Positions 38,958 to 59,073 of a DNA stretch of 64,000 nt are shown one piece after another. The stretch covers positions 8,654 through 72,653 of the forward strand of contig CAZHAK010000012.1 in NCBI GenBank assembly GCA_964530625.1. Reading direction: 5' to 3'. The DNA is from an uncultured Alphaproteobacteria bacterium. Lineage in GTDB: Bacteria > Electryoneota > RPQS01. Below the pieces are notes generated by a model, which ran no database searches, was not told the origin of the DNA, and saw only the letters and a program-made list of their open reading frames with translations. The translations under genes and the position numbers were made by a program. The first letter of the stretch is position 1, and each line of letters opens with the position of its first letter.

Positions 38958-40361
38958 CTATTTCCTCCTCCAAATAGTCTTCCCCGCCCTATCCTCAATG
39001 ATGATGCCTCTCTCAGATAGGGCATCGCGGGCGCGGTCGGCTTCGGGCCAATTTTTGGATTGACGGGCGTGGTTGCGGGCTTCAATTAAGGCTTCAATCT
39101 CAGCAGCTTCGGGGTCATCAGGCTCCTGATCCAAATCAAGGAAGCCTAAAACAGAGTCAAAACGGCGCATCGCGCCAATGGCAAGCTCCTGCTCGGAATT
39201 GCCAATTTTAGCTTGCTGACAAAGGGTGTTCGCGTCACGCACAAAGTTGAAAACTGCAGCCAGCGCTTCGGGGTAATTTAGATCATCATCAAGGGCGTCC
39301 CTGAACTCGTGCTCGCGTTGCGCAACCATGTCTTTCAGTTCCGCCATTCCCCCTTTGCCTGTCGCGTGCTCCAGATTCAAACTGCACGATTCAAATCTCG
39401 CCAATGCTTGTTTGATACTCTCAAGTCCACTGGCCTGAAAATTGGTGCGCTGACGGTAGTGACCGGACAACAATCCGTAGCGGATTTCGCGCGGCTTCCA
39501 ACCCTTGTCAATCATATCCTGCACTGTGAAAAAATTCCCCAGTGACTTGGACATTTTTTGACCGTCCACAAGCAAATGCTCGGAATGCATCCAGTAGCGG
39601 GCTAACGGCTCGTGCGTCACGCCTTCTGTCTGCGCGATTTCATTCTGGTGATGCGGAAAGATCAGGTCAACTCCGCCCAAATGAATATCAAAATTTTTGC
39701 CAAGATATTTCAACGACATCGCCGAGCACTCAAGATGCCATCCGGGCCGGCCCTTGCCTAAACTCGTCTCCCAAGCGACCGGGCCATCCTGCTCTTCCCA
39801 ATTCTTCCACAGAGCAAAATCGCGCACATCTTCTTTCTCGTATTCGTCACTTGCGACACGCTCGCCCACGCGCATTTCTTCCATGTTCAAGCGAGCGAGT
39901 TGTCCGTAACTCGAAAACGAGTCAATTTTGAAGTAGACGGAGCCATCCGCGACATAAGCATGTTTGGCGGCAATCAAGTCTTCCACCATCTTGACCATTT
40001 CCGGGATATGATCCGTCGCGCGGGGATAAATATCCGCGTCGGTAATTCCGATAGCCTTACGGTCGGCATGAAACGACTCGATATATCGATCCGTATATTC
40101 ACGCAGGGAAACGTTCTCGCAATTCGCGCCTTTGATCGTCTTATCGTCAATGTCCGTAAGGTTCATCACCCACGTCACCTCGTATCCGGAATAGGCCAAA
40201 TAACGGCGCAATAAATCCGAAATCAAAAACGTGCGGAAATTCCCGATATGCGCTTTCGCATAAACCGTGGGCCCGCAGGTGTACATAGCCACTTTGCCGG
40301 GATCTCGCGGCACGAACGGTTCAACTTTTCGAGTGAGTGTGTTGTAAAGTTTCAGTGACAT
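38958..40361 (-). CDS. cysS: cysteine--tRNA ligase
   Basis: Class I motifs: HIGH-like 'AHIGNFRT' and 'KMSKSLGN'; 467 aa. Confidence 0.96.
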   Translation of the reverse strand: MSLKLYNTLTRKVEPFVPRDPGKVAMYTCGPTVYAKAHIGNFRTFLISDLLRRYLAYSGYEVTWVMNLTDIDDKTIKGANCENVSLREYTDRYIESFHADRKAIGITDADIYPRATDHIPEMVKMVEDLIAAKHAYVADGSVYFKIDSFSSYGQLARLNMEEMRVGERVASDEYEKEDVRDFALWKNWEEQDGPVAWETSLGKGRPGWHLECSAMSLKYLGKNFDIHLGGVDLIFPHHQNEIAQTEGVTHEPLARYWMHSEHLLVDGQKMSKSLGNFFTVQDMIDKGWKPREIRYGLLSGHYRQRTNFQASGLESIKQALARFESCSLNLEHATGKGGMAELKDMVAQREHEFRDALDDDLNYPEALAAVFNFVRDANTLCQQAKIGNSEQELAIGAMRRFDSVLGFLDLDQEPDDPEAAEIEALIEARNHARQSKNWPEADRARDALSERGIIIEDRAGKTIWRRK

Positions 40362-40387
40362 TTATCGTAAAGGAGTAGTCTAAACTG

Positions 40388-41038
40388 TTAAGCGCTCGTT
40401 CCGCCGAGTTTGGCGCGGCTGTAATGCACAAAGCGAACAGCATACTGAATTCCTGAAGCCAAAATAAACGCGCTGGCAATCCAAACAAGCGTCTTCGGAT
40501 TGAACTCCGAGGTCATTTTCGGCCAATTCAGGGTGTAGCTGATCAATGCGACCGCGATGACAAACATCGTTAGTTTGCCGACGTAATTGGATGTAACAAT
40601 TAAGCCGCGCTTGCGAAACACATAAAAAGAGCCCCAAATAATCACCACATCGCGCGAAAGTATCAGCACCAAAAACCAAAGCGGCAGCGGGTTCTCGCGA
40701 GACGGCAAAGCCAGAAAAACAGCCAGCGCACCCAACCAAATCTTATCCGCCAGCGGATCGAGCACTCGTCCCCAATCCGTTTCGACATGAAACCAACGGG
40801 CGATCAATCCGTCCACCATGTCGCTGACCAGCGCCGTAGCCATCAACACCAGAGCCCAGAAGTTTCCGTTCTCTTTGGGCCCAAGTTTCAGAAAGTAGAA
40901 GAGCGGAATCAGCAAGAAAACTCTGGCGATGCTCATAAGATTTGGCACCGTCAGGAATTTTCGAGGCCGTGGTTTCGGTTCGAACACGAAACTCGTCTGT
41001 TTAGGCAACAGTTTGTCGGTGCGGTTTATCTCTGCCAC
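40388..41038 (-). CDS. CDP-alcohol phosphatidyltransferase family protein
   Basis: Carries the motif 'DMVDGLIARWF...DPLADK'. The likely start is GTG 41038, with GGAG 5 nt upstream and 2 nt after the purF stop; the track ORF extends to 41086 and overlaps purF. Confidence 0.85.
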   Translation of the reverse strand: MAEINRTDKLLPKQTSFVFEPKPRPRKFLTVPNLMSIARVFLLIPLFYFLKLGPKENGNFWALVLMATALVSDMVDGLIARWFHVETDWGRVLDPLADKIWLGALAVFLALPSRENPLPLWFLVLILSRDVVIIWGSFYVFRKRGLIVTSNYVGKLTMFVIAVALISYTLNWPKMTSEFNPKTLVWIASAFILASGIQYAVRFVHYSRAKLGGTSA

Positions 41039-41040
41039 GG

Positions 41041-42507
41041 TTACTCCATGGTTCGCAGAACCCGTTCCAGTTCCGCGCGTGCCCACTCTTTATCTGGTTC
41101 ACTTAACTCAGCAAGCTGCGCAGGATCTTTTAGCGGCACGGCATATTGTCCGGAGAAGCAGGCCGTGCAATAGTTTGATGGTTCGTCTCTAGTCGCGGCC
41201 AGCATCCCTTCGTGTGACAAATACCGTAATGAATTCACACCCAAATAGCTTTCGATTTCGGCGGGACTTGCAAACGCGGCAATCAGTTCGCGCCGAGTCG
41301 GGAAATCCATTCCGTAGAAACACGGCCAGCGCACAGGCGGCGACGCGATCCGCACATGCACTTCCGTCGCACCAGCGGCTCTGATCACTCCCACGAGTTT
41401 CTTCAAAGTCGTTCCGCGCACAATAGAGTCATCCACCAGCACCACGCGGCGGCCTTCCAGCACTCCGCGCACGGGATTATATTTAATCCGCGAGTTGTAC
41501 GAGCGCATAAACTGCGATGGATTGATAAAGGTGCGGCCAATATAGTGATTTCGAATCAAGCCGATTTCAAATTTCAAATCGCTCGTGCGGGCATACCCGA
41601 TGGCCGAAGTGTTGGACGAATCAGGAACAGAGATGACAACATCGGCGTCAGCAGGATGCTCCTCCGCCAAAATCTTGCCCAGTTTTCTGCGCACTTTATC
41701 CACGGACGTGCCGTAGATATGGCTGTCCGGTCGCGCGAAATAAATCAATTCAAAAATACACATGTGCAGATCGGGCGCGGCATACTGCACCGACTCCAAT
41801 CCACGTGTCGAGATGTTCACGATTTCGCCCGCGTTGACGTCGCGCTCATAGGTCGCGCCAATAATGTCAAACGCACACGTCTCGGAAGCGAACACATATC
41901 CCTCACCCATGCGACCCATGGCCAGCGGCCTGAAGCCGTGCGGATCGCGGGCGGCCAAAACACCGTCTCTGGTAATCAATACGACTGAGAACGCGCCTTC
42001 CAGCTCCTTGACCGCCTCGGCCAGGCGGGTCGCGGCAGTCGGAGCTTTGGATCGCGCGATCAGATGCACAAACAACTCGGAGTCCGAGGAGGTCTGAAAG
42101 ATCGCTCCCTCGTCCTCCAGTTTCTTGCGCAAAGCGCGCTCGTTGGTGATATTGCCGTTGTGGGCAACCGCCAGCGGGCCGTCCTTGGTGTTTACCACGA
42201 GAGGCTGAACATTAGTCAAAGACGAGGAGCCGGTCGTGGAGTACCTCACATGCCCGACGGCCCAACTGCCTTCAAGCTCCTTGAACCTCCCTTGGTCTCG
42301 AAACACGTCAGCCAGCAACCCCATGCCTCTATGAGCAAACAGGTTTTGGCCGTCGGAACTGACAATTCCCGCAGATTCCTGACCCCGGTGCTGAAGGGCG
42401 TACAGGCCCAAATAGGTCAGTTCAGCGGCACGGGGGTGGCCATGAAGGGCCATAACCCCACACTTGTCGCGGGGCTTGTCGTCGAGGAAATCTATGAGAT
42501 GTGACAT
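41041..42507 (-). CDS. purF: amidophosphoribosyltransferase
   Basis: N-terminal nucleophile 'KCGVMALHG', PRTase motif 'VVLVDDSIVRGTT', and C-terminal Cys residues for the Fe-S cluster. Confidence 0.96.
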   Translation of the reverse strand: MSHLIDFLDDKPRDKCGVMALHGHPRAAELTYLGLYALQHRGQESAGIVSSDGQNLFAHRGMGLLADVFRDQGRFKELEGSWAVGHVRYSTTGSSSLTNVQPLVVNTKDGPLAVAHNGNITNERALRKKLEDEGAIFQTSSDSELFVHLIARSKAPTAATRLAEAVKELEGAFSVVLITRDGVLAARDPHGFRPLAMGRMGEGYVFASETCAFDIIGATYERDVNAGEIVNISTRGLESVQYAAPDLHMCIFELIYFARPDSHIYGTSVDKVRRKLGKILAEEHPADADVVISVPDSSNTSAIGYARTSDLKFEIGLIRNHYIGRTFINPSQFMRSYNSRIKYNPVRGVLEGRRVVLVDDSIVRGTTLKKLVGVIRAAGATEVHVRIASPPVRWPCFYGMDFPTRRELIAAFASPAEIESYLGVNSLRYLSHEGMLAATRDEPSNYCTACFSGQYAVPLKDPAQLAELSEPDKEWARAELERVLRTME

Positions 42508-42666
42508 AAGACCCGTAATATAACCCGCTTAGATTGGCTTGTCAACTTCTGACCCGTCTTTTTTCATTGCCCCTGCTTCTTGATAGTCCGGTCAGGGTTT
42601 TATATCTTAGAAATCTTGAACTAAGCGAAACCGTCGGAGGGTTCCGGCGGACCACCTCGGGCCAAT

Positions 42667-43725
42667 TTGGAGCTAATTTTTGTGAAGGTACTGATAACGG
42701 GCGGCGCGGGATTCCTCGGACTACACACCGCGCTGTGTTTTGCGGAGCATGGCTGGGACCTGATTTTAACGGACATAGCACCCTTTGAGACGTCGGAATA
42801 TCCGGCGGGAACGGTTTTTCTTGAGCACGATGTGCGGGACAAAGCCGGGCTGGACAAAATCTTGTCGGAATACAAAGTGGACGTGATTGTCCATGGCGCG
42901 GCAGCTCTGCCTCTCTGGAAGCCGAAGGACATTTTTGAGATAAACGTGGAAGGCACGCGCCGCGTACTGGAATCGGCCAAACAAGCAGGGATAGACCGCG
43001 TCGTGTTTGTCTCGTCAACGGCGGTCTACGGCATTCCCGATCATCACCCCTTGTACGAAACGGACAGAGTGCATGGCGTAGGTCCGTATGGCGAGAGCAA
43101 GATTCAAGCGGAAGACGTTTGTTTCAAGTTTCGCTCAGCCGACTTCTGTGTGCCGGTGATTCGTCCCAAGACGTTTATCGGCACCCATCGTCTGGGAGTC
43201 TTTCAGATTCTTTATGATTGGGTCGAAAGCGGCAAGCGCATTCCGATGATCGGCAAGGGCAACAACCGCTATCAGCTTTTGGAAGTAGACGATCTTGCTG
43301 AGGCGATTTATTTAGGCGCAACGGTTGAGGCGGCTCGCGCGAATGATACATTCAACATCGGCGCGGAAGAATTCAAGACCGTCAGAGAAGACATGGGCGC
43401 AATGTGCCACTATGCGGGTAACGGTGCGCGTCCGTGGGGCACTCCCGCAGGGCCGGTCAAGCTCGCGCTGATGATTTTTGAAGTGATGGGACTTTCGCCT
43501 CTTTATAAATGGGTCTATGGCACGGCGGACCAGGACAGCTTCGTCTCAATTGACAAAGCCAAGCGCGAGCTGGGCTGGAGGCCGAAATACTCGAACGCGC
43601 AGGCCTTGATTCGCAGCTATCAATGGTATTTGGATAACAAGCACACGATTCCCGAAGGCAGCGGCATCACGCACCGCATCGCCTGGAATCAAGGCATCCT
43701 GAAATTCTTCAAACGGTTTATGTGA
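42667..43725 (+). CDS. NAD-dependent epimerase/dehydratase (extended SDR)
   Basis: Contains 'ITGGAGFLG' and the 'YGESK' catalytic YxxxK. The start may instead be GTG 42682 (GGAG upstream). Confidence 0.88.
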   Translation: MELIFVKVLITGGAGFLGLHTALCFAEHGWDLILTDIAPFETSEYPAGTVFLEHDVRDKAGLDKILSEYKVDVIVHGAAALPLWKPKDIFEINVEGTRRVLESAKQAGIDRVVFVSSTAVYGIPDHHPLYETDRVHGVGPYGESKIQAEDVCFKFRSADFCVPVIRPKTFIGTHRLGVFQILYDWVESGKRIPMIGKGNNRYQLLEVDDLAEAIYLGATVEAARANDTFNIGAEEFKTVREDMGAMCHYAGNGARPWGTPAGPVKLALMIFEVMGLSPLYKWVYGTADQDSFVSIDKAKRELGWRPKYSNAQALIRSYQWYLDNKHTIPEGSGITHRIAWNQGILKFFKRFM

Positions 43726-43746
43726 TCTGCTGACGGGAGGTTGGGA

Positions 43747-46404
43747 ATGAAACTGTCCGCCACAATTGCACTTTCGATAGTTTGCCTGTTCTGTTTACAG
43801 TCAACGATGCTCGCCACTCCCTATTGGACGGAGGCCCAGCTTGACTCAGCGCAAGCCGCGTCCGGTACTGCGTCATTGATTCGCCACGGTGAGACCGGCA
43901 ACCGCTCGCACAGCAGATCGCTTGACGATATTGCTTACTTCGTGAAGTATCGGCAGCTTTGTGATTTTCTGGCTTCGATGCAGGTCACGACACCCGGCGC
44001 GAACTTAGGCGGGATGCGCGAGGGCGAGGTCGGCAGCGACTTCAATATCATTCAGACCGACAACACACAAGAAGCCATTCGCGTTTGGTCGCAATATTCT
44101 ATATGGACGGGCGACACCGCTCGCTATGCGCAGAACATTCGCAACGCCTGGACATATTGCACGGTCTGGCCCGCGTGGCGCGAAGAAGGCGGCGGCTACT
44201 ACGCGATGCACAACTGCGGCTGGGGATTTGAAGCGGCCTACAAATACCGCGAAGCCTACGGCGACACGAGCAAAAACTGGTACGCCGACAGTTGCGCGTG
44301 GTGGGTGAACGGTAATCCGCTAAGTCTGACTTCGATTCTGAATATCGCCGCGCAAGGCTTGGGCATCGGCGGTATGTATCCTCACGCGGTCTATCGTGGC
44401 CGCACGGATTGGCAGGACTTCACATTGGGCCGCGCGCGCATTATTCGCAATTGGTTTCAAGCAAATCCGTCGCGCTTAAATACCGAAACAAGTTGGGCAC
44501 TCTGCGCAGGCACTGCGATTTGGGGAGTCTGCAATTCACTGTGGATAGCCTATCCCGACAGCGGCGCGACGTGGATAAACCAATACGGCACGAATCTCGA
44601 AACATGGGAGTCGCCCTCATCATGGTACAACGCATTTAATACGTGGTACTCGAACGCGACGTTCAGGTTCTGGGAAATCAGTGGCGACTCACTCTATTGG
44701 CATCGCGGGGTTTTCTACGCCGACTCGCTGGTGGGTTTTGACGTGGACAACGACGGCGGCATTCCGCCGGGCACCTGCTGTATCAGCAACGGCAACGACC
44801 ATACTTGGGTCAGTGCCTACATGGGTTGGATGGGACTCGAACGGATAATTTCGTCTGCGCCGATTTCGTTTGTGGATGCGGTCGGATTTTCCAGTCCCTC
44901 AGAGGACGCTGCGTATCTTGCGGGCGATCCGCTTCCGGTTACTGCGCTGGTCGCGAATCAGGGTACGGAAGCATTGCAGGGCCGTGTCTGGGTGTGGGGA
45001 TTGAATTACTCGGACAGCGCAGATTTCACTGCTGGAGCGGGTGACGTCGTGGAGGTACCGATGAGCAATCTTTGGACGCTTGCAGACAACTCCACACTTC
45101 CTGAATCGCCTATGCTATTTTCAAGGGTGCGGGTTATCTTAGAAGGCGACACTTTGCAGGCATTAGATTCTGCGGGCTTTGATATTCGGCGCGGTGGCAT
45201 CGTGCAGGGAACTATCTCGGGCGAGTTTGACATCGCAACGTCCCCCGCCTGCTTGATTGAGTTCTATTCGGATTCCTACCCGGACTCGCTCTGGCACTCG
45301 GTAAATGTCGGCGCGGGCGAGATGTACTCCAATGGCGCTCGTCGCCTGTTGTCGGGCGGCAATCGAATGGTCGTCTACGGGCCAGCTCGCTACTTGATTG
45401 AAGAGATCGCGTTTTACCCATTAACTCCGGAAGAGAATCCGGATGATCTCGATGTGTACCTGACATCATCGGACGTTCTTCTGGTGGATGACGATCTTGG
45501 ACAAAGCTACGAGAATTATATTCTGTCAGCGCTTGATGCCAATGACAGAAATGTGCGCGTCTGGGATCGCCAGTCAACGGTGCTCGGCGATCTGTCTAAT
45601 GTGCCGTGGTTGATTTGGATGACGGGCAACGACGCGGTGACGACTCTTGATGCGCAAGACCATAATACGTTAACGGGCTTTATGCTGGCAGGCGGCGGAG
45701 TGTTATTGACGGGGCAGAACATCACGGATGATCCTCAGAACGAAGACTTCTTACGCGACATAATGCGATGCGAGGAAGATCGCTCGGATACGGACGTGCT
45801 GCGCGCCTATGGCTTAGGCGACGACCCTGACGTGGATGGACAATTCTTGTTGCTGTTAGGCTCACAAGGGGCGCAGAATCAAACAAGCCCCTCCTCTATC
45901 ACTTTGTTAAATGGAGCCACAGCGATCTTTGTCAATGATACGATCACGGAGGAAGTGTGCGGAGTATCAGGACTGCATGGATCTGGCAAGTTTATTTTCC
46001 TGAGCTTCGGACTTGAAGGAGCGTCAGGACAAGCTGGCAGTACGTCGCGCTCCGTGTTTTTATCTGCTGCAGAAGACTGGTTGACAGCACCGCTGCAAGC
46101 AACCATTGATCCACCCGTCGTGTGGAACTTCGAGTTGCTGCCGAGTTTTCCCAATCCTTTCAACGGCCAAGTGCAGATTCGCTGGCTCGCTCCAGATAAT
46201 TCTTCCCGAACTACTCTCCAAGTTTACAATCTTTTGGGCAGGCATGTGACAACCTTGTTTGACGGGTTCGGGAAAATTGGACAAAACTTGGTCACATGGA
46301 ACGGCGCAACATCAAGTGGTGTTCCGGTATCCAGCGGAACGTACTTGGTTCGCTTGACGACGCCGGACGCGACGCTGTCACACTCCATCCGCTTCATCCG
46401 CTGA
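43747..46404 (+). CDS. large secreted protein of unknown function with T9SS C-terminal sorting domain
   Basis: GGGAGG SD before ATG 43747 and a signal peptide 'MKLSATIALSIVCLFCLQS'. The N-terminal region is W/Y-rich. The C-terminus 'FPNPFNGQVQIRW...GTYLVRLTT...IRFIR' is a Por tail. Confidence 0.85.
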   Translation: MKLSATIALSIVCLFCLQSTMLATPYWTEAQLDSAQAASGTASLIRHGETGNRSHSRSLDDIAYFVKYRQLCDFLASMQVTTPGANLGGMREGEVGSDFNIIQTDNTQEAIRVWSQYSIWTGDTARYAQNIRNAWTYCTVWPAWREEGGGYYAMHNCGWGFEAAYKYREAYGDTSKNWYADSCAWWVNGNPLSLTSILNIAAQGLGIGGMYPHAVYRGRTDWQDFTLGRARIIRNWFQANPSRLNTETSWALCAGTAIWGVCNSLWIAYPDSGATWINQYGTNLETWESPSSWYNAFNTWYSNATFRFWEISGDSLYWHRGVFYADSLVGFDVDNDGGIPPGTCCISNGNDHTWVSAYMGWMGLERIISSAPISFVDAVGFSSPSEDAAYLAGDPLPVTALVANQGTEALQGRVWVWGLNYSDSADFTAGAGDVVEVPMSNLWTLADNSTLPESPMLFSRVRVILEGDTLQALDSAGFDIRRGGIVQGTISGEFDIATSPACLIEFYSDSYPDSLWHSVNVGAGEMYSNGARRLLSGGNRMVVYGPARYLIEEIAFYPLTPEENPDDLDVYLTSSDVLLVDDDLGQSYENYILSALDANDRNVRVWDRQSTVLGDLSNVPWLIWMTGNDAVTTLDAQDHNTLTGFMLAGGGVLLTGQNITDDPQNEDFLRDIMRCEEDRSDTDVLRAYGLGDDPDVDGQFLLLLGSQGAQNQTSPSSITLLNGATAIFVNDTITEEVCGVSGLHGSGKFIFLSFGLEGASGQAGSTSRSVFLSAAEDWLTAPLQATIDPPVVWNFELLPSFPNPFNGQVQIRWLAPDNSSRTTLQVYNLLGRHVTTLFDGFGKIGQNLVTWNGATSSGVPVSSGTYLVRLTTPDATLSHSIRFIR

Positions 46405-46408
46405 ACCC

Positions 46409-47740
46409 GTGAGCGGCTTCTTTTCGTTTCGCCGCAAGAATCCGGGGCAGGTCTTCGCGTGGGCGACCTACGATTTCGGCAACTCAGCCTTCGCGACGAC
46501 AATCCTTGCCGTAATCTTCAACAAATATTACGCGGGCGTCATCGCTGGCGGCGCGGAGGGAGTTGCGGTGATGGGAACACAGGTTCCCGGCACGACGGTC
46601 TTTAGTTTTTTTGTTTCGGCCAGTATGATTCTGGTCGCGTTGCTGGGGCCGCTACTCTCTGCTCTTTCTGATTTGGGTCACCTGAAACGGCGCATGCTCC
46701 TGCTGCATACAGCGATTGGAGTTGCCGCGACGATGATGCTCGCGACACTCGGCGAAGGCGATTGGCTGATCGGCGGAGTATGGTTTACCATCGCACAATT
46801 TGGTTTTGCCGGAGCCGCGATTTTTTACAACGCGATGCTGCTGGACATCGCGGATCCACAGGATTACGCGAAAGTCTCAAGCATCGGCTGGGCGTGGGGA
46901 TATTTAGGCGGCGGGATGCTGTTGGCTGTGAATCTTGTCATGCTTCAGTATCCGCACTTGCTGGGCCTTCCCGCGGGCTTTTTCACGGTTCAGCACTGTT
47001 TCTTAAGCGCGGCGGTTTGGTGGGCGGTGTTTACAATCCCCATCGCGCTCTCCGTGCGCGGGCAACCGTCTGCGAAAACCGTGAGGATCAAGCAAGCCTT
47101 CCGCGCGTTACTCCGCAGCCTAAGAAGCCTGCGCAAACTTCCGACATTCTCGCGCTTCTTCTTTGCATACTTGCTTTACAATGACGGGATCGAAACCGTA
47201 ATTATCATGGCGTCCATCTTCGGAGATCAGGAGTTACATATGGAAACAGGAGAGCTTGTGCTCTTCTTCCTAATGGTGCAGGGTGTCGCCTTTGTGGGAT
47301 CACTTATTTTTGGAGTGATCGCCAACCGTTGGAACAATCGCGACGCGGTTTTGTTGGGTGTGGGAATCTGGAGTCTAGTTGCGCTCTGGGGTTGGCAGTT
47401 GGGCTGGATGGGCGATGCCTTGCAAGAATACTGGTTTTTGGGAATTCTCGCGGGTCTCGTGTTGGGTGGTACTCAAGCGGCTTCGCGTTCGCTGCAAGCC
47501 ACTCTGATTCCACCCAGTCAATCTGCGGAGTTTTTTAGCTTCTTTGCGGTTTCCGGAAAGTTTGCAAGTGCGGTCGGACCGGCTATCTTCGGAATTGCCG
47601 TTTGGATCACCGGCAGCTTGCGAATCGGGATGTTGTCACTACTGATATTTTTCGTACTCGGCGCATGGCTGCTTTGGGGAGTTTCCGAAGAGCAGGGCCG
47701 TCGGGAAGCACTCGACTTTCAATCAAATAGAGATGAATAA
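46409..47740 (+). CDS. MFS transporter, UMF1/Atg22-like family
   Basis: N-terminus 'WATYDFGNSAFATTILAVIFNKYY' and about 12 hydrophobic segments. GTG start 4 nt after the preceding stop. Confidence 0.85.
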   Translation: MSGFFSFRRKNPGQVFAWATYDFGNSAFATTILAVIFNKYYAGVIAGGAEGVAVMGTQVPGTTVFSFFVSASMILVALLGPLLSALSDLGHLKRRMLLLHTAIGVAATMMLATLGEGDWLIGGVWFTIAQFGFAGAAIFYNAMLLDIADPQDYAKVSSIGWAWGYLGGGMLLAVNLVMLQYPHLLGLPAGFFTVQHCFLSAAVWWAVFTIPIALSVRGQPSAKTVRIKQAFRALLRSLRSLRKLPTFSRFFFAYLLYNDGIETVIIMASIFGDQELHMETGELVLFFLMVQGVAFVGSLIFGVIANRWNNRDAVLLGVGIWSLVALWGWQLGWMGDALQEYWFLGILAGLVLGGTQAASRSLQATLIPPSQSAEFFSFFAVSGKFASAVGPAIFGIAVWITGSLRIGMLSLLIFFVLGAWLLWGVSEEQGRREALDFQSNRDE

Positions 47741-47773
47741 ACCAAGTTTAAAGACTTCAAGACGGGAGATTAC

Positions 47774-48397
47774 ATGAACGTTGCGCGACTCTTTTTTGCA
47801 CTGCTGCTCACATTCAATCTATCCGCACATGCCGAGGAGATGCCCGAACTTGCGACCCTTTTGGCGCTCTTCAGCGCGAGCGCGACAGAGAACGGCACCA
47901 TCCGCTTGAATTGGACCCTCGACCAGCAATCTCCTGCCGTGATAAAATTTCGCGTTTATCGCGGCTATGAAGAACTGGGAAACTTCTCCGTCTTATCCGA
48001 GATTCCGTTTCACGCGGAACAGGGCGCGGCGGACTATCTGTTGAACGACACGTCGGCGATTCCGGGTGTGACCTACTACTACAAGCTCGCGGCACAAGGT
48101 CAACTGAACGAATCCATCTTCCCTGTCGTGATTTCGGCAGGAGTACCATTAGGCGACAAGAACGCGGGTCAGGACGACGAAGCTCCCGCGATCATTCTTC
48201 CCGGTGAGACGGTAAGACTGTACGTGCGCAAATCCGGGCACGTCAAGCTCGAACGCACAGCCCCCGAACAAAAGACACTGATTGATGGCGAGTTAGCATC
48301 GGGAGTCTATGAAGTCGAAGCGGGCCCGGCTGCTCAATCGCTGAAAGTTTGGGCGGGGCAAGCCTACGAGTTTTCGTTAAGCTGGCCGATACAATAA
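47774..48397 (+). CDS. secreted hypothetical protein with FN3-like domain
   Basis: Signal peptide 'MNVARLFFALLLTFNLSAHA' and an FN3-like stretch 'IRLNWT...FRVYRG...GVTYYYKL'. Confidence 0.75.
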   Translation: MNVARLFFALLLTFNLSAHAEEMPELATLLALFSASATENGTIRLNWTLDQQSPAVIKFRVYRGYEELGNFSVLSEIPFHAEQGAADYLLNDTSAIPGVTYYYKLAAQGQLNESIFPVVISAGVPLGDKNAGQDDEAPAIILPGETVRLYVRKSGHVKLERTAPEQKTLIDGELASGVYEVEAGPAAQSLKVWAGQAYEFSLSWPIQ

Positions 48398-48414
48398 GCA
48401 GTGTTACGGCTAGC

Positions 48415-48445
48415 AAAAGAGCCACTCCCGTGAGTGGCTCTTCAG
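48415..48445. terminator. bidirectional rho-independent terminator
   Basis: Hairpin agagccactc / gagtggctct with a 4-nt loop, between the convergent genes ending at 48397 and 48467. Confidence 0.7.
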
Positions 48446-48466
48446 CTTATTGAATCTCTATGTCCG

Positions 48467-49315
48467 TTACACTCTCGCGTCCGCGATACACTGTATCAAC
48501 TGCGAGTGAAACTCCTGTGACGCTCCGAGAATGTTTCCCGACTCAAGAAAGTTTTCGTCGCCGTCAAAGTCACTGCACACTCCGCCTGCTTCTCGAACGA
48601 TCAAAGCACCCGCCGCAATGTCCCACGGCGACAGACGGTGCTCCCAAAAACCGTCAAAGATCCCCTGCGCAGTCCAGCATAAGTCCAGCGCGGCGGCGCC
48701 CGCTCTGCGAATGGCGCGGCATCTTGGAAAAATGACCGCGAACTCTTTCAGATAAAGTGTAAGCTCGTCCGAGTGCCGGCGCGGAAATCCCGTCGCCAAG
48801 ACCGCGTCGCCAAGTTTAATTTTGCGTGTAACAGCCAAGCGCTGTGTATTCAAGTAGCTGCCCTTGCCCTTTGCGCCCCAAAACAGCTCGCCCGTTACAG
48901 GATTGTACACGACTCCGCACAGCAGTTCCTGCACACCATCGTCGCGCACTTCAACTAACCCCAGACTGACGGCAAAGACCGGGAACCTCTGTACAAAATT
49001 GGTCGTACCATCGAGAGGGTCAAGATACCAGATCAGTCCGTTCCCTTGGCGGGATGTGCCTTCTTCACAAATTATTCCCGCTTCAGGCATTTCCTTTTGC
49101 AGGAATTCCGACACAACCGCTTCCGATTCAATATCTGCGCGCGTCACAAGATCCCCTCTGCCCTTCTCGCGCACGTCTTTCCCGCTCAGATCTTGCCAGT
49201 AGTTCATCAGCACGTCTCCGGCCTTCAGGCAGGCCAAAATGGCAAGCGACGCCCGCTCGTCGGTTCCAAGGGCCAACTTGCGTGCGTCGCGGAAGAATTC
49301 AGTTGAAGTGTTCAC
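48467..49315 (-). CDS. suhB: inositol monophosphatase family protein
   Basis: Contains 'WYLDPLDGTTNF' and 'WDIAAG'. Confidence 0.9.
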   Translation of the reverse strand: MNTSTEFFRDARKLALGTDERASLAILACLKAGDVLMNYWQDLSGKDVREKGRGDLVTRADIESEAVVSEFLQKEMPEAGIICEEGTSRQGNGLIWYLDPLDGTTNFVQRFPVFAVSLGLVEVRDDGVQELLCGVVYNPVTGELFWGAKGKGSYLNTQRLAVTRKIKLGDAVLATGFPRRHSDELTLYLKEFAVIFPRCRAIRRAGAAALDLCWTAQGIFDGFWEHRLSPWDIAAGALIVREAGGVCSDFDGDENFLESGNILGASQEFHSQLIQCIADARV

Positions 49316-51955: not shown

Positions 51956-54900
51956 CTAAGTCACGAGCTCTTTCAACTCAACGTGGCCAACCAAGACTTC
52001 TACCGGGTGACCCCAATCGCGAATGCGGGGATCTCTGGTCAACAAAACTACTTGTCGCTTCGCGGCAATCTGTTCGATTAACTGCCGCGATATGTTCAGA
52101 TGATGATCATCCAATTGTGATAACACATCATCCCAGAAAATCGGAGCACGCTCCGCCACGGAAGTCGCGGAAAGCAGTCCGGCGATTAAACATAGCGCCA
52201 CAAGTTCCGAGACGCCGCGCGACTGCGATTTCAACGCTCGTCGTTGCCCATCGTCCATCACCATGATCCATTCGCTCCCACTCCACGCCACCGACGCGAA
52301 TTTTTCTCCGATTGCCTCAAACACCACGCCTTGAATTATCGCCAGCACCGACTCGCTCGCCTGATCACGCTGTTCAGCCAATTCCGTGGTCAGCACATAG
52401 CACATTGAGCGCGCCGCTTGCATGCTCTTCTCGATTTCCTCAATTTTCGCTTGCGCAGACGCACGCTCGTTCTGCAGTTGCTGATCGGACGGAAAGTTTT
52501 GAACTTGAGCCTGCAAGCCGGGCAGATCAAGCTTTCCAACCTCGTCAGAAAGTCGGTCGGCAAGCTCCAAAGAAGCGTGAGCTTGTGCCGTTAACTCCCG
52601 CATTTGTTCACGGTACTTGACCAACCCTTCTTCCCGTGAGCCGATGGTCGCAAAGAGCGGGTCCAGTTCCTGAATGCGTGCGGTAACCTGAGCCAATTCC
52701 TCTTCGATCATACTTGTTCGCGCGGACAACTCTTGCGGAGACCGCTCAGCACTGAGTTTCGCTTTAGCTTCGCGCAGTCCGGCCTGAAGTGAGTCGCTCT
52801 CTCGAATCGCGGCCAGAATTTCATTTGCTCCAAGCTTCGAAAATGCGCCGCCCACGGATTCATCCAGCGACTCCATTCCTGAAATCACGTCGCGCAATTG
52901 CTGTCGCACGGCCTCCATATCCGGAGTCTTCGCTAGTTCCGATTCGACGCGACTGATTGAAGTCGTCAATTCCTGACGGCGCTTTTTGCGCTCGTTCAGA
53001 GTTTCTATTTCATTGCGCTCAAGAGTTGCAATCTCTTCGCGTAACCGCTGAGACTCAAGTTCCATCTCCGCGCTGCGTGCATGAGTTTCGTCCTCTCTGT
53101 CAAACGAGGTCAGTGCAGCATTCGCCTTCGTCAGATTGGCCGTCAAAGTCCGATAATCGGTCACCCGTCTGCGAATGTCTTCGCGCTCGAGTTTTCGCAA
53201 TACGGCGGGCACAGGGTCATCCGCCGGAGCGTCAACTATTCTTTCGCACATATTCGCCAGAGTCTGTTTGCGTTCGGTCAACCTGACAAATTCATTCCAA
53301 CGCGCTAGCGCGGACTCACGATCAGAAAACATTGTGAACATCTGCAAATCTCTACGCAATGCTTCCCGTTCCGAAAGCGCCGACTGCTGCAGATGCTGCA
53401 ACGTCTCTATCTTGCGGACATGGTCATCCGCGTCTTCCTCGTAGTTTGGCGAAGTCAACCGGCCGATGGCATACCCGGCTCCTCCTCCAATCACCGCGCC
53501 GAAGAAACCAACGTCCCAGCCCAAAGTTAGACCACTCGGCACACCTGCCACGGCCGCACCCAGCACAGACATAATCACTTTCGTACCGGCTCCAGAGCCT
53601 TTGATCTGCAACTCGACGACTTTGCGGCGCAAGTCGGCCAACTCGGTTTCGCGAGCAGTCACCGCCTCCTGCAGGGCGAAGAGCTTTTCTATCCGCGCCG
53701 GTGTATCCGTTGAAAGTGTGAAAAATTCTGCAAACTCTTTGATCAGTCTCTCGTTAACACGCTCAAGTTCCGCTTGTTGCTTCCCCGTATCGACTTGTTG
53801 CCTGTCGTCAGAGTCGTTCTCGTCTGAGTCAATATACCGCTCGAGCGCCAGCCATTCGTCCGGACCCAGCGCGGCAAGCTCTCCATATTTTTCCGTGCGT
53901 TGCTTTTCCAAACCGTCGCGCTGTCTGAGTAAATCAATCCTCGTGCGTGATAGATCTTTTGAGATACCCTCCAATTCTGCAAGCCTCACATACAACGGTT
54001 GCGTCACCGGCCCCGGCGACTCGCTTGCGGACATCTCTGAAATTTCCTTCTGAAGTCGACTGATGGTCTCTGAGAGCTCGGCAGATTTTCCTTCGTTCGC
54101 TCTTAGCTGCGCCGCAAGAGTATTGCGCGCTTCAGATAACCTCAGATAGTCTTGTGCAAGCTGCTCCGCGTTGTCGCCCAGCTCCCGTGTGATAGAGTGT
54201 ACCGCTTCGAGCCGCTCCTGCAATTGCGCGAATTGACTCCGCGCGGATTCAACGCTGTTCCATGAACTCCGAAGTTCAGCCGCCCAAAGCTCTAAATGAA
54301 CACACCGTTCAGCCAGCTCGATCTTGCTGTCAAGATCTTTCTTCTCCTCGGACGAAACATTCGCCGCCAATTCCGCATCCGTGATCCGCTCTTGCAACTC
54401 GCCGCTCTTCTCTTCCGCGACACGTAGTTTTTCGCGCAGCGCATGGGAGTTCAATAACTGCTGCTCGATCCGCGAGACATCAGCGTGCAAGTTCAGGAGT
54501 CGCGATTGCCCATCACCTTCCGTCAATGATTTAAGTCGGCGTTGCCATACATCAAATTCTCGCTGTAGCGGCACACTAGTCATCTCCGCTGCCCAGTCCA
54601 AAAGTTCTTGCTCAGGTGCCTTCCACTCTCCGTTCAAAACAAAATTCGGCAACGCTTCAGGCATCGTTTCAACCGGCAGGAACAGATCCGTAAACGGGCT
54701 GTATTGTCCCAAACTATCCGCTTGTTCCGAATGTTGCCTTACCTGACCGCTCTCAGTATCCAATGACCACTCGCGCTTGATCGGCCCCAGCTGTCCGACC
54801 ACCGTCACGCGCAGAAGCCCCGCCTTGAACAAACTATGCCGCAAGCTCTCAGTATGGTTGGGCAATGTCGCCGCCATCACTGCCGAACACAAGAGCGTCT

Positions 54901-55057
54901 TTCCGCCGCCGTTTCCCGCAGCAAAAACATTCAGGCCATCGCCTCGTAATTTCCACGTTACCTGCTCAGCCCCAAGCAGGCTCGGCTTGCCGGACAATTG
55001 AACGAACTGGAGAGAGAAAATGGGAGGGTGTCCTGACTGTCGCGGCATTCGGTTCAC
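51956..55057 (-). CDS. Rad50/SbcC/SMC-like coiled-coil ABC-type ATPase with central glycine-zipper hydrophobic hairpin
   Basis: Walker A 'AAGNGGGKT' lies near the N-terminus. About 850 aa of E/L/R/Q-rich coiled-coil-like sequence follow. The C-terminus has 'SRGVSEL' and 'IFWDDVLSQLD'. Residues 487-534 are hydrophobic and Gly-rich. Confidence 0.8.
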   Translation of the reverse strand: MNRMPRQSGHPPIFSLQFVQLSGKPSLLGAEQVTWKLRGDGLNVFAAGNGGGKTLLCSAVMAATLPNHTESLRHSLFKAGLLRVTVVGQLGPIKREWSLDTESGQVRQHSEQADSLGQYSPFTDLFLPVETMPEALPNFVLNGEWKAPEQELLDWAAEMTSVPLQREFDVWQRRLKSLTEGDGQSRLLNLHADVSRIEQQLLNSHALREKLRVAEEKSGELQERITDAELAANVSSEEKKDLDSKIELAERCVHLELWAAELRSSWNSVESARSQFAQLQERLEAVHSITRELGDNAEQLAQDYLRLSEARNTLAAQLRANEGKSAELSETISRLQKEISEMSASESPGPVTQPLYVRLAELEGISKDLSRTRIDLLRQRDGLEKQRTEKYGELAALGPDEWLALERYIDSDENDSDDRQQVDTGKQQAELERVNERLIKEFAEFFTLSTDTPARIEKLFALQEAVTARETELADLRRKVVELQIKGSGAGTKVIMSVLGAAVAGVPSGLTLGWDVGFFGAVIGGGAGYAIGRLTSPNYEEDADDHVRKIETLQHLQQSALSEREALRRDLQMFTMFSDRESALARWNEFVRLTERKQTLANMCERIVDAPADDPVPAVLRKLEREDIRRRVTDYRTLTANLTKANAALTSFDREDETHARSAEMELESQRLREEIATLERNEIETLNERKKRRQELTTSISRVESELAKTPDMEAVRQQLRDVISGMESLDESVGGAFSKLGANEILAAIRESDSLQAGLREAKAKLSAERSPQELSARTSMIEEELAQVTARIQELDPLFATIGSREEGLVKYREQMRELTAQAHASLELADRLSDEVGKLDLPGLQAQVQNFPSDQQLQNERASAQAKIEEIEKSMQAARSMCYVLTTELAEQRDQASESVLAIIQGVVFEAIGEKFASVAWSGSEWIMVMDDGQRRALKSQSRGVSELVALCLIAGLLSATSVAERAPIFWDDVLSQLDDHHLNISRQLIEQIAAKRQVVLLTRDPRIRDWGHPVEVLVGHVELKELVT

Positions 55058-55354
55058 GTATGGGAGTTGCCTTGAGGGTGTGCATAACTGATATTAACTA
55101 TAGCAAGCAATATACATTTGCTCGCCCGTAAAGACAAGTATTCTAAGTATCTTCGAAACAAGTCACGACAGAAGTGTGCAAAACTTGCAAAATACGGCCA
55201 ATTGTTTTTTCACGACTTGAATGGTTCGATTGCCAAGCACCATTCCGCCTGCCTCTCTTCAGCGCAGTATCAAAATCATTCAGAATAGTAGTTAGTCTCA
55301 AGAAAATTTCGTAAAATTAGAGCGGTTCCGGCTAATGAAACCTTATTGACCCAT

Positions 55355-56140
55355 ATGCGACTGGCACTGACTCTGATTCTTGGTATTTTCACATTGGGGG
55401 AGGCCGCAATCGCCGCAGACTTCGTGCGGCTGAAAAGCGGCCGCCTGATAGAGGGCGCGGTCATCCGACAAGATACAATCGCCGTCTATCTCGCCCCGTG
55501 GGATCAGCGCGCCCTCAGGCAGCCAGAGCTTCAAGTTTTCGCCCGCGACGAAGTGGAATCAATCTGGCTCGGCGGCAAACCCGCCAAAGGTGTTAGACGC
55601 AAATACACTCCGCGGCCTGGACTTGTTGAATTAGGCGGCGGATTGGGACTGCAAACATGGGCCTCCACCTTGCATCAGCGCCGACATCTTATCCAGTTTT
55701 CGACGCTGGTAGGAACTTCTATCAGTGACTATCTCGGCATGGAGTTAGTCGGTGAGATGACGGCGCCATTTGGTAAATCCGCCGATCCCGGTTTTGATTC
55801 GCTGCAATTCTCATATCAGCTTGCGCTTCACCTTGTAGGCACGCTGAAAACCAAAAGCCCGTTCACTCCGTTCGCGTATGTAGGCGCAGGAATCGGCCGC
55901 GACGTCTCGACCGCTGGCGTAACCTTGACCAAACACGCGGATGACAGGAATCTGGTGGAAGTCGGCATCGGGGCCAAACTCGGTTTCGGCGGTGTCGGGC
56001 TCCGCACAGAGATTCGCCATGCATACTATGAATGGAACAAGACTATTTACATCGGCTCGTCCAACGGGCGCGACTACTACACGACACGGCAATCCGCGGA
56101 CGCGACCAGCATGCGTGTCTCGCTGTTCACATACTTTTGA
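55355..56140 (+). CDS. outer-membrane beta-barrel protein
   Basis: Signal peptide 'MRLALTLILGIFTLGEAAIA', alternating amphipathic strands, and a C-terminal '...VSLFTYF' aromatic terminus. Confidence 0.75.
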   Translation: MRLALTLILGIFTLGEAAIAADFVRLKSGRLIEGAVIRQDTIAVYLAPWDQRALRQPELQVFARDEVESIWLGGKPAKGVRRKYTPRPGLVELGGGLGLQTWASTLHQRRHLIQFSTLVGTSISDYLGMELVGEMTAPFGKSADPGFDSLQFSYQLALHLVGTLKTKSPFTPFAYVGAGIGRDVSTAGVTLTKHADDRNLVEVGIGAKLGFGGVGLRTEIRHAYYEWNKTIYIGSSNGRDYYTTRQSADATSMRVSLFTYF

Positions 56141-56154
56141 TCTTGGAGATCACC

Positions 56155-59073
56155 ATGCGCCCGCAAAAGATTCTTAGCATCATATACATCGCGCTGATTT
56201 CAACGACCGCGTTCGCCGCTCAGGATTACTCCGTGGAGTTGCTGACGAAGGCTCTCGTAAAGAGCGAACAGCTTGAGTCGGGCACACTTGCCGACTGGAA
56301 GCGCGTGCGTTCAGAAGGCTTTGACGGATACGGAGTATACTGGGGAATTCCCGTCACTCTCGATGCGAAATCTTCCGGACAATCACTTGCAGAGTCCATC
56401 GCCTCAGAGCTTGACCTTGCCGATGAGTATACACTGCTTGCCTCACACGTATCTCCCACTCGCGAGTACGAGATATTCAGAGAACTCCGTAACGGACTAC
56501 CTGTGATTGGCGGCAGACTTGATATTGCCCTGAACAAAGCAGGACAGCTTACACGAGTCACTCACACGAGCTTCTCGAAGTGGAACACAAGCGGCATGCA
56601 TGCTCTGAGTCCGTTTGTCGCGGCAACGTATCTAACAGCGAACCTCGAACCAGCGAATTGGCAAGTGGTCAATGAAGAATCCTTCGCCTGCTGGTACCCG
56701 GATGCCGACGCGAGAAATTTGCGCGCAGCCTACTGGCTGAAAGTTGCAGGATCCCAGCCGCACCAAAGGTATTTTGGAATTGTAGACGCCCAGTCCGGCA
56801 AAATTTTGCTGGAATGGCCGGGCATCGCACACGAGGTGCTTACGTTGAATGTAGACCAGCCCTATTGGCAGCCCTACGATCATAGTCAGGTCTTGGAAGC
56901 GCCTTGCCAGCATCAATCAGTCAGAATAAACGGCTCAACCTTTACGACCAACGCATCCGGCGCTGTATCCGCTGAAGCCGGGTCTCAAGCGAACGTGGAC
57001 GCCTACCTGCAAGGATCATTTGTGGAAGTCGGAGAGCACGAAGAATCAAACGTCCCGTGGCAGAGCGCAACTTACTCCGCGCCCTTCGTCAACAATGAAT
57101 TTTTTTGGGATCAAGATCACACCAGCCGCCCGGCCCTTAATCTCTACTACCACACGATGTTTATTCACGACTGGTACAAGATTCTTGATCCTCCCTATGA
57201 CGCATTGGACTATCCGGTGCCCGCTGTTGCAAACTATGGCAACAGTTACGACAACGCGTTTTGGAACGGCTACGGAACTTACTACGGTTCAGGTATGACC
57301 TACGGGAATTTTGCGATGTACTCCGATGTGATCTACCACGAATACACACACGGAGTGACCGATGGAATCTATCCCGACGGTACGTTGCCCTACACGGGGC
57401 AGTCGGGCGCCATGAATGAAGCGTGGTCGGATTACTTTGCCTGCACGATCAATGGGGATCATTTAATGGGTGAGTGGCTGACGGGAAATGCCACCAGTTA
57501 TTTTCGCAATCTTCTCAGCACGACCATTTATCCACAAAATTGGGTCGGACAAGTGCATGGCGACAGCCCGTTTATCTCCGCGCCGCTGTGGACTATCCGC
57601 AATGAATTAGGCGTCGGCTACGGTGATTCCCTCGCTCACTTCGCTCGCTATGCGCTGGCGGAAACTTTCTTCGACTACTTCTTGGCTGTGCTGGAAACCG
57701 ATGACACGGACGGGAATCTCGCCAATGGCACACCGAATGACTACGTGATTTACGACGCCTTCGGCAGACACGGCATCGGACCGGGCGTAAAGCCCAATTT
57801 GGTCATTCGTAACTTTGTTATTGACGATTCGGACGGCAACGGCAACGGTTTTGCGGAAGCGGGTGAAAATGTGACCATGACGTTTTCCATTGTCAATGAC
57901 GTGACGCTCTTCCCGCCATTTGTCACGAACGCGGTGCTTCATACTGTTACGGACGACAACACAATCTCTCTCGGAGACACGGAGTTTTCGTTAGGCACGA
58001 TTGGCCCGCGCGACTCGATTCAAATCGGGCCGAACGCTGTGACCGTTTCATCAGGCGCTACGGAACATTGGGCGGTAGTTCGTCTTGACGTGACCTCAGA
58101 TCAATTTTCAGAAGAGTTCGAAACCCCGTTGGAATTCGTGATCGGTGTTCCAAAAGTGCACGTCGTCACGCGCGCGCTTGCAACGGATGTTGACCAATAT
58201 GTCACAGGCTCACTGCGTACCATGGACAAGATATTTGTGCACAAGCGTTTAAACTCATCGCAAGGCCTGGATCTGTCCGCACTGCCTGATACAGGCATGG
58301 TTGTTTGGTTGTCCGGCGACGCAACGAACTCCGGTTTGTCTGAGCAAGACATCACCACACTGACCGCTCATGTCGGCGGCGGTGGTCGCCTGGTGCTGTC
58401 CGGGAAAAATATTCTGGGTGGAATCACGGGCAGCGATTTTGCTCGCAATACTCTGGGCGTGGACGCTGTGGGCCGTTCCCGCTTGAGGATGACAACAAGA
58501 ATGAATATGCCCTTTGCCGAAGGCGACGTGTATCTATTGACAGGATCAGGCGGTGCGGCTAATCAAGATAGCATGACGATGCTGGACGTTATGACCAACT
58601 CAACTCCCGTGCTCAGGTTTGGTCCATCAGGTAATGACATTTCCGCTGTCGCCGGACCGATTGGCGGACGAACTCTCGTCTTCGGTTTTGGCATAGAAGG
58701 GATTGTCGACAATTCCCCGATCGGAAATCAATCGCGTGCTGTCTTCCTCTCGCGGCTGCTCGACTGGGCGGGCCACCCGACACCAGCCGATGATCACATA
58801 GCCCCCGTTTGGCGACCCAATGATTTCGCGCTGCAAGCAGCTTATCCGAATCCATTCAACAGCACAGTGCGACTGGATTACAACATCGGCAACGCAAAAA
58901 ACGCGCGTCTAGTCTTTTTCGATGTCTTAGGCAGAGAAGTTCATCGAGACAATTTGCCCGCTCAGTCAAACGTTTATTCGTGGCAGCCGAGCCTTGCCTC
59001 AGGCGTGTACTTCGCCATTCTGCAATCGGATTTTCAAACATCCGCGCCGCAGAAGTTAATGCTGCTTCGTTAA
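56155..59073 (+). CDS. M4 (thermolysin-like) zinc metalloprotease with T9SS C-terminal sorting domain
   Basis: GGAG SD before ATG 56155 and a signal peptide. Has 'HEYTHGVTDG' (57337-57351) plus 'GAMNEAWSD', matching the thermolysin HExxH...NEaxSD pattern. The C-terminus 'YPNPFNSTVRLDY...GVYFAIL' is a Por tail. Confidence 0.88.
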   Translation: MRPQKILSIIYIALISTTAFAAQDYSVELLTKALVKSEQLESGTLADWKRVRSEGFDGYGVYWGIPVTLDAKSSGQSLAESIASELDLADEYTLLASHVSPTREYEIFRELRNGLPVIGGRLDIALNKAGQLTRVTHTSFSKWNTSGMHALSPFVAATYLTANLEPANWQVVNEESFACWYPDADARNLRAAYWLKVAGSQPHQRYFGIVDAQSGKILLEWPGIAHEVLTLNVDQPYWQPYDHSQVLEAPCQHQSVRINGSTFTTNASGAVSAEAGSQANVDAYLQGSFVEVGEHEESNVPWQSATYSAPFVNNEFFWDQDHTSRPALNLYYHTMFIHDWYKILDPPYDALDYPVPAVANYGNSYDNAFWNGYGTYYGSGMTYGNFAMYSDVIYHEYTHGVTDGIYPDGTLPYTGQSGAMNEAWSDYFACTINGDHLMGEWLTGNATSYFRNLLSTTIYPQNWVGQVHGDSPFISAPLWTIRNELGVGYGDSLAHFARYALAETFFDYFLAVLETDDTDGNLANGTPNDYVIYDAFGRHGIGPGVKPNLVIRNFVIDDSDGNGNGFAEAGENVTMTFSIVNDVTLFPPFVTNAVLHTVTDDNTISLGDTEFSLGTIGPRDSIQIGPNAVTVSSGATEHWAVVRLDVTSDQFSEEFETPLEFVIGVPKVHVVTRALATDVDQYVTGSLRTMDKIFVHKRLNSSQGLDLSALPDTGMVVWLSGDATNSGLSEQDITTLTAHVGGGGRLVLSGKNILGGITGSDFARNTLGVDAVGRSRLRMTTRMNMPFAEGDVYLLTGSGGAANQDSMTMLDVMTNSTPVLRFGPSGNDISAVAGPIGGRTLVFGFGIEGIVDNSPIGNQSRAVFLSRLLDWAGHPTPADDHIAPVWRPNDFALQAAYPNPFNSTVRLDYNIGNAKNARLVFFDVLGREVHRDNLPAQSNVYSWQPSLASGVYFAILQSDFQTSAPQKLMLLR

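Follow-up and report, generated by a model that had tools for sequence, protein, structure and literature searches.

The window analysed here is a stretch of 64,000 nucleotides (nt) of an uncultured bacterium (contig CAZHAK010000012.1, positions 8,654 to 72,653), which covers the rpoB/rpoC, EF-G/EF-Tu, secY and rpoA region of the chromosome. Two of its genes, encoding an 887-amino-acid (aa) protein (protein A) and a thermolysin-like metalloprotease (protein B), share a module of about 220 residues that lies next to the C-terminal sorting domain ("tail") of the type IX secretion system (T9SS). A preliminary description of the window had noticed this shared region, could not assign it to any named family, and suggested that it might be an accessory T9SS module with an α/β fold. 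We examined the homology, family extent, fold, conserved residues and architecture of the module. The features on which the analysis rests are the following.

43741-46404, + strand: protein A, 887-aa open reading frame (ORF), arranged in the order signal peptide, uncharacterised N-terminal region (~540 aa), module, T9SS C-terminal domain
45439-46098, + strand: module copy A, aa ~567-786 of protein A, placed by the family hidden Markov model (HMM)
46147-46401, + strand: T9SS type A C-terminal sorting domain of protein A, aa 803-887 (PF18962 and PF13860; TIGR04183 33.4 bits; tail HMM E=1.4e-23)
56155-59073, + strand: protein B, thermolysin-like (M4) metalloprotease; listed ORF 56032-59073 (1013 aa), likely start Met42, giving 972 aa
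58120-58785, + strand: module copy B, aa 697-918 of the 1013-aa ORF (family HMM E=3.7e-50)
58831-59070, + strand: T9SS type A C-terminal sorting domain of protein B (PF18962 2e-06; TIGR04183 32.9 bits; tail HMM E=1.3e-15)
3950-5608, + strand: β-helix T9SS cargo, used as a control (Por_Secre_tail 6.6e-10 and Beta_helix; tail HMM match, no module HMM match)

Homology of the two module copies

Full-length BLASTP comparison of proteins A and B produced a single colinear alignment (A 564-861, B 694-992; 29% identity, E=4e-25). When the tails were excluded (nt 45430-46110 against 58111-58800), 67 of 230 positions were still identical (29%), with E=8e-22 under compositional adjustment, and both sequence blocks quoted in the preliminary description fall opposite each other in the pairwise alignment. 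The family HMM recognises the window copies at E=1e-50 to 1e-68 and sets module bounds within about 40 nt of those proposed earlier. The homology of the two modules is thus confirmed. No third copy was found in the window by tblastn with either module (next best E>=0.087), and the β-helix cargo carries a tail and lacks the module, as had been stated before.

Both proteins have the features of T9SS type A cargo, i.e., signal-peptide-like N-termini and a TIGR04183/PF18962 tail (the TIGR04183 cut-off is 23 bits), and in both the T9SS domain begins ~15 aa past the module, which agrees with the earlier placement directly upstream of the tail. No T9SS machinery genes were seen within the window. Pfam and NCBIfam searches with protein A matched the tail only, while protein B has a Peptidase_M4 match in Pfam (5.2e-10, aa 349-444). 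The mechanical ORF of protein B probably begins 41 codons early: the listed ORF (from 56032) overlaps the upstream gene at 55346-56140, translation from Met42 (56155) begins with a typical signal peptide, MRPQKILSIIYIALISTTAFA, and the closest representative to protein B (P0002) is exactly 972 aa long.

A large, unnamed domain family

A profile built from the two window sequences was searched against 1.84 billion cluster representatives and matched 2,023 proteins at E<=1e-3, of which 904 reached E<=1e-10 and 33 reached E<=1e-30. The members occur mostly in secreted proteases of uncultivated bacteria, and those that carry a name at all are labelled merely "T9SS type A sorting domain-containing protein", "hypothetical protein" and similar. 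The module copies of the window had no match in Pfam-A or NCBIfam, in keeping with the earlier failure to name the region, and the precomputed Pfam annotation of 92 protein A homologues listed tail families only. No PDB sequence was matched significantly by profile (best E=0.028), and a word-indexed protein search with module A alone or with a 46-sequence alignment returned no match, a result that reflects the sensitivity limit of that tool and not absence. In the literature on T9SS with GATase, glutamine amidotransferase-like domains or DUF4159 we found no description of the module.

A non-catalytic GATase1-like fold

AlphaFold supplied with the two window copies alone gave a poor model (predicted local distance difference test score, pLDDT, 49.6), and with 46 diverse modules it gave a confident one (pLDDT 92.8, predicted template modelling score 0.90) of alternating strands and helices with a C-terminal β-meander. 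The model shows a three-layer α/β/α arrangement built on a mainly parallel central sheet and can be superposed on known members of the class I glutamine amidotransferase-like (GATase1-like) superfamily (Pfam clan Glutaminase_I), so that at the fold level the module belongs there and the earlier guess of a GATase1-like α/β fold is borne out. Its nearest structural neighbours are all non-catalytic domains, the closest relatives being oligomerisation or scaffolding domains. In agreement with this placement, the weak but recurrent Pfam matches of the 46 members fall on GATase1-like families only: DUF4159 (14 members), ThuA (8), DUF4350 (8), GLMA_2nd (7), ABC_transp_aux of the GldG family (5) and IFT52_GIFT (4).

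DUF4159 and ThuA do not take in the module. Matches to DUF4159 (PF13709; threshold 25.9 bits) stay below threshold in the 14 members (best E=1.7e-4); the threshold is passed by multi-copy proteins only, on the summed score, over profile positions of about 44-88, and neither window copy matches. The window copies do not match ThuA either (PF06283; threshold 33.4 bits); its best match has E=1.1e-5, and the family member P0038 reaches 20.2 bits against the 33.4 cut-off. In comparisons with the group of DUF4159, ThuA and DUF4350 (PF14258), only about 45 of about 200 profile positions align with the module. In enzymes with a GH42, GH35 or GH5 catalytic barrel, the GH42-type trimerisation domain (Glyco_hydro_42M) comes after the barrel and provides the oligomer interface, whereas no glycosidase family is among the Pfam families listed for the carriers of the module. 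Taken together, the module can be assigned with high confidence to a non-catalytic GATase1-like branch along with ThuA, DUF4159, the GH42-type accessory domain and the GIFT domains, and with equally high confidence it represents a large, so far unnamed and statistically solid domain family within a well-known superfamily.

Conserved residues and the lost catalytic triad

Conservation was counted in 159 aligned modules with about 30% pairwise identity, using copy A numbering:

D20, D21 and D22: 85, 92 and 92% conserved
Y27 and E28: 74 and 70%
W63: 96%
T65: 91%
G66: 99%
[ST]94: 96%
G95: 97%
Q96: 93%
N150: 96%
Q151: 83%
F193: 96%
G194: 84%
E196: 98%
R207: 84%

In the model, the conserved residues come after strands 1, 3 and 4 and after the last strand, or belong to the 143-155 loop: DDD comes after strand 1, W-x-T-G after strand 3, [ST]-G-Q after strand 4, G-A-x-N-Q in the loop, and F-G-x-E after the last strand. 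The sheet edge at the C-terminal ends of the parallel strands is the usual ligand or active-site location of the GATase1-like fold. The signature is complete in copy A (LLVDDD, W-x-T-G, T-G-Q-N-I, G-A-x-N-Q, F-G-L-E and R207). Copy B is degenerate, with T-R-A for DDD and K for Q96, and retains W63, G66, G95, N150, Q151, F193, E196 and R207.

Catalytically active class I amidotransferases (TrpG, HisH and GuaA type) carry a Cys-His-Glu triad, in which the Cys occupies the nucleophile elbow that follows strand 4 and the last strand leads into His-x-Glu. Matched by secondary-structure order, not by superposition, the elbow of the module reads [ST]94-G95-Q96 and the last-strand motif F193-G194-x-E196, which we take to resemble the F-H-P-E of true amidotransferases minus its His. 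Neither Cys nor His reaches 60% in any column, and H113 stands at 52% and is missing from both window copies; the aligned residues therefore indicate, with high confidence, that the triad is gone and that its Glu position alone has been kept. A Ser/Thr-His-Glu triad was considered and rejected on the same behaviour of His113.

Carrier proteins

When 115 full-length representatives were scanned against Pfam, about half had a recognisable peptidase domain, and at least 10 peptidase families were represented: S8 (18), M4 (8), M1 (7), M14 (6), C25 (5), M6 (5), C1 (3), C11 (2), M10 (2) and M28 (1). Chagasin-type inhibitor, Ig-like, CARDB, CarboxypepD_reg and Omp28 domains were also present. In giant proteins of 1,300-6,000 aa, 2-5 modules accompany peptidases of the C25, C11 or C1 type. 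Modules with as much as 55% identity are attached to N-terminal regions that have no detectable similarity to each other, so the module is an evolutionarily mobile domain that has been shuffled.

The last folded domain before a surface anchor

The positional rule was examined in the 150 best-scoring representatives. A T9SS-type tail was detected by HMM in 102 of them, and in 98 of these 102 the module ends within 40 aa of the tail (median gap 11 aa). A dockerin directly follows the module in about 9 representatives (Pfam Dockerin_1 in 5/55). In P0040 (MFX1512375.1, aa 478-1373), an S8 peptidase of a Promethearchaeota archaeon, three tandem modules are followed by a hydrophobic helix and a basic tail. 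In nearly every case, then, the module is the final folded domain ahead of a surface anchor, whether the anchor is a dockerin, a transmembrane helix or a T9SS C-terminal domain, and this anchor-proximal rule is real but not T9SS-specific. The profile search suggested in the preliminary description did recover a family, and its question whether the module is always followed by a T9SS domain is answered in the negative.

Two ideas about the module and the tail were tried and discarded. If module and tail were shuffled as one cassette, their similarities should rise together; among proteins with unrelated N-termini the correlation is r=0.09, so the two do not travel as one cassette. The idea that an acidic module neutralises a basic tail (the median net charge of the module is -22) was dropped because the N-terminal parts of the same proteins are similarly acidic (-7.2 against -8.6 per 100 aa).

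Genomic surroundings and other genes of the window

The gene order around protein A (window 38958-49315) is cysS, purF, NAD-epimerase, protein A, ATG22-like major facilitator superfamily (MFS) transporter, an ORF and inositol monophosphatase. It is conserved in three metagenome-assembled genomes (MAGs; L001, L002 and L003), one of them labelled Calditrichaeota. The neighbours are mostly about 60-90% identical across the three MAGs (purF, epimerase and MFS 72-90%) and protein A is 56-58% identical, so protein A evolves much faster than most of these housekeeping neighbours. Other protein A homologues are labelled KSB1, LCP-89, Eisenbacteria or simply "bacterium".

The N-terminal region of protein A (43813-45429, + strand; aa 25-563) is rich in Trp and Tyr and had no match in Pfam, NCBIfam or PDB sequences. 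It forms a conserved family of about 90 clusters in MAGs of Calditrichota, KSB1, LCP-89 and Eisenbacteria, with long forms of ~880-906 aa that have the module and short forms of ~471-562 aa that lack it; 13 short homologues (471-562 aa) of this domain have a T9SS tail. A database copy identical to protein A over the queried N-terminal region (P0168) is a gene product on the JGI metagenome contig Ga0130016_10000024 (341 kb, sample 3300009868). It was called from Met23 (865 aa), a start that would remove the signal peptide of protein A. The orthologue on MAG contig JADJCU010000003 (L003, 9095-9161) is split into two frames, its N-terminal 389-aa piece being annotated separately as P0180; relative to the window protein its N-half is 72% and its C-half 44% identical. 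The split is either a frameshift or an assembly error, and possibly the C-terminal half has been replaced.

Two further ORFs lie near protein B. The one directly upstream (55346-56140, + strand, 264 aa) has a signal-peptide-like N-terminus, a C-terminal ...SLFTYF and no Pfam match, and its product looks like a small outer-membrane β-barrel protein. The other (51956-55057, - strand, 1,033 aa) has a weak, below-threshold SMC_N match (E=6e-4) and may encode an SbcC/SMC-like ATPase.

Discussion

Our preferred reading, to which we give a probability of roughly 0.6, is that the module serves surface-tethered hydrolases as a mobile, non-catalytic platform domain close to the anchor. Because of its anchor-proximal position, the module would become the C-terminal, membrane-proximal domain of proteins A and B once the T9SS tail has been removed. 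There it would hold and orient the catalytic part above the surface through protein-protein contacts, either by oligomerisation or by packing on the enzyme, and the predicted acidic/polar pocket would probably bind a cation or small ligand. The platform proposal is made because the structural relatives are oligomerisation or scaffolding domains and because human site-1 protease offers a precedent. In that enzyme the S8/P-like part is separated from the transmembrane anchor by a GIFT subdomain of GATase1-like fold, which packs on the protease, stabilises the loops with the oxyanion-hole residue and has an acidic pocket occupied by a putative Ca2+ (PMC11231238). The order of parts in the archaeal P0040 (S8, module, transmembrane segment) matches that of the human protease.

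Several points weigh against this proposal. The function is deduced from fold, conservation and architecture, and confidence in the platform or binding function and in the ligand is moderate to low. The clustering of the pocket residues is deduced from the strand-end positions of conserved residues. Specific packing of the site-1 protease type cannot operate on all carriers, because these include at least 10 unrelated catalytic folds. Since DDD is lost in copy B and in some tandem copies, ligand binding, if it occurs, is not universal. Finally, the architecture census of the 150 best-scoring representatives is biased towards relatives of the window copies.

The closest known systems are the GIFT subdomain of site-1 protease (MBTPS1, PDB 8uw8), the GIFT domains of IFT52, OST48/WBP1 and GldG, and the GH42-type trimerisation/accessory domain (GH42, GH35 GlmA/IaSGT, GH5 Op5Man5, GH164). 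Sequence likeness to the GIFT families is marginal (the IFT52_GIFT matches have E>=0.011), the module is smaller than the site-1 protease subdomain (about 220 aa against about 380 aa), and it differs from that subdomain in having its own motif set and in being joined to many peptidase families instead of one. The GH42-type domain lies inside a cytoplasmic enzyme, whereas the module lies next to a surface anchor, and the polar signature of the module is not a described feature of GH42-type domains. DUF4159, ThuA and DUF4350 differ in context, being found in membrane Bat-like proteins or sugar-metabolism operons while the module is found on secreted peptidases.

A more far-reaching version of the platform proposal can be formulated, which we regard as doubtful. 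In this version, the pocket formed by DDD, W-x-T-G, [ST]-G-Q, N-Q and E would bind a cell-envelope component or Ca2+ and so hold surface-tethered proteases in a defined active orientation. The new, widespread anchor-proximal family (at least 2,000 sequence clusters in uncultivated FCB-group bacteria and at least one Asgard archaeon) would then correspond in prokaryotes to the GIFT subdomain by which human site-1 protease is licensed, and might be the source from which that subdomain evolved.

Among the other explanations, a cleavable pre-peptidase C-terminal domain or intramolecular chaperone, which would aid folding or keep the enzyme latent during export and be removed at maturation, seems unlikely to us. 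The PPC domain (PF04151) is a promiscuous accessory domain placed C-terminally in secreted peptidases that span many catalytic families, and the module has the same distribution, with a strong link to secreted peptidases of many families and a position C-terminal to the catalytic domain. The likeness is one of functional analogy only, since PPC is an unrelated β-sandwich and has no Pfam match here. A single domain is not expected to serve folds as unlike as S8, M4, C25, C1, M14 and M1, tandem copies do not suit a pro-domain, protein A has no recognisable peptidase domain to assist, and cleavage of the module together with the tail would cost the enzyme its anchor.

The accessory T9SS role suggested in the preliminary description, in which the module would aid the adjacent C-terminal domain with the translocon, PorV or the PorU sortase, or carry the surface glycolipid attachment, fares somewhat worse and is judged quite unlikely as a T9SS-specific function. 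Its positional basis stands, as most of the best representatives bear tails, nearly all of their modules adjoin the tail, and both window copies obey the rule. The specificity does not: dockerins and, in an archaeon, a transmembrane anchor take the place of the tail directly after the module; 2-5 copies are present in 20 of the 150 proteins, and many of these copies are internal; the 13 short homologues of the protein A N-terminal domain keep the tail and dispense with the module, as does the β-helix cargo of the window; and module and tail similarities are almost uncorrelated. The T9SS-carrier idea is for these reasons too narrow.

It is very unlikely that the module is a cryptic enzyme whose polar crest ([ST]94, Q96, N150, E196 and DDD) forms a new active site, for example of an amidase, a MEROPS clan PC peptidase or a glycan-modifying activity. 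The GATase1-like fold does host several hydrolase families (C26, C56 and S51), and polar residues at the canonical active-site location are 92-98% conserved despite the family identity of about 30%. Nevertheless, there is no conserved Cys or His, 47% of members have Thr at position 94, none of the nearest structural neighbours is catalytic, and copy B has been retained despite its loss of DDD and Q96. Chance or compositional likeness between two acidic extracellular proteins that are no more than 29% identical is already refuted by the compositionally adjusted pairwise E-value, the family HMM scores, the thousands of homologues and the confident common fold.

What is new here is an unnamed family whose motif signature is distinctive and whose architecture is regular; accessory domains of this kind, non-catalytic, GATase1-like or GIFT-like and attached to extracytoplasmic hydrolases, were known before. 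The module helps annotation and is of moderate interest to T9SS and protease biology, and on present evidence it reveals no new principle. For T9SS research it carries a caution, in that regular placement beside the C-terminal domain is not in itself a sign of a secretion role. Naming the module would annotate about 220 so far blank residues in each of thousands of proteins and supply a marker for surface-tethered hydrolases that is independent of the anchoring system. It would also make a simple bacterial system available as a model for the GIFT/GATase1-like accessory domains of site-1 protease, OST48 and IFT52, which are poorly understood. Uncultivated sediment and wastewater lineages such as Calditrichota, KSB1, Eisenbacteria and LCP-89 degrade protein by means of extracellular peptidases, and it is mostly on secreted proteases of uncultivated bacteria that the module is found.

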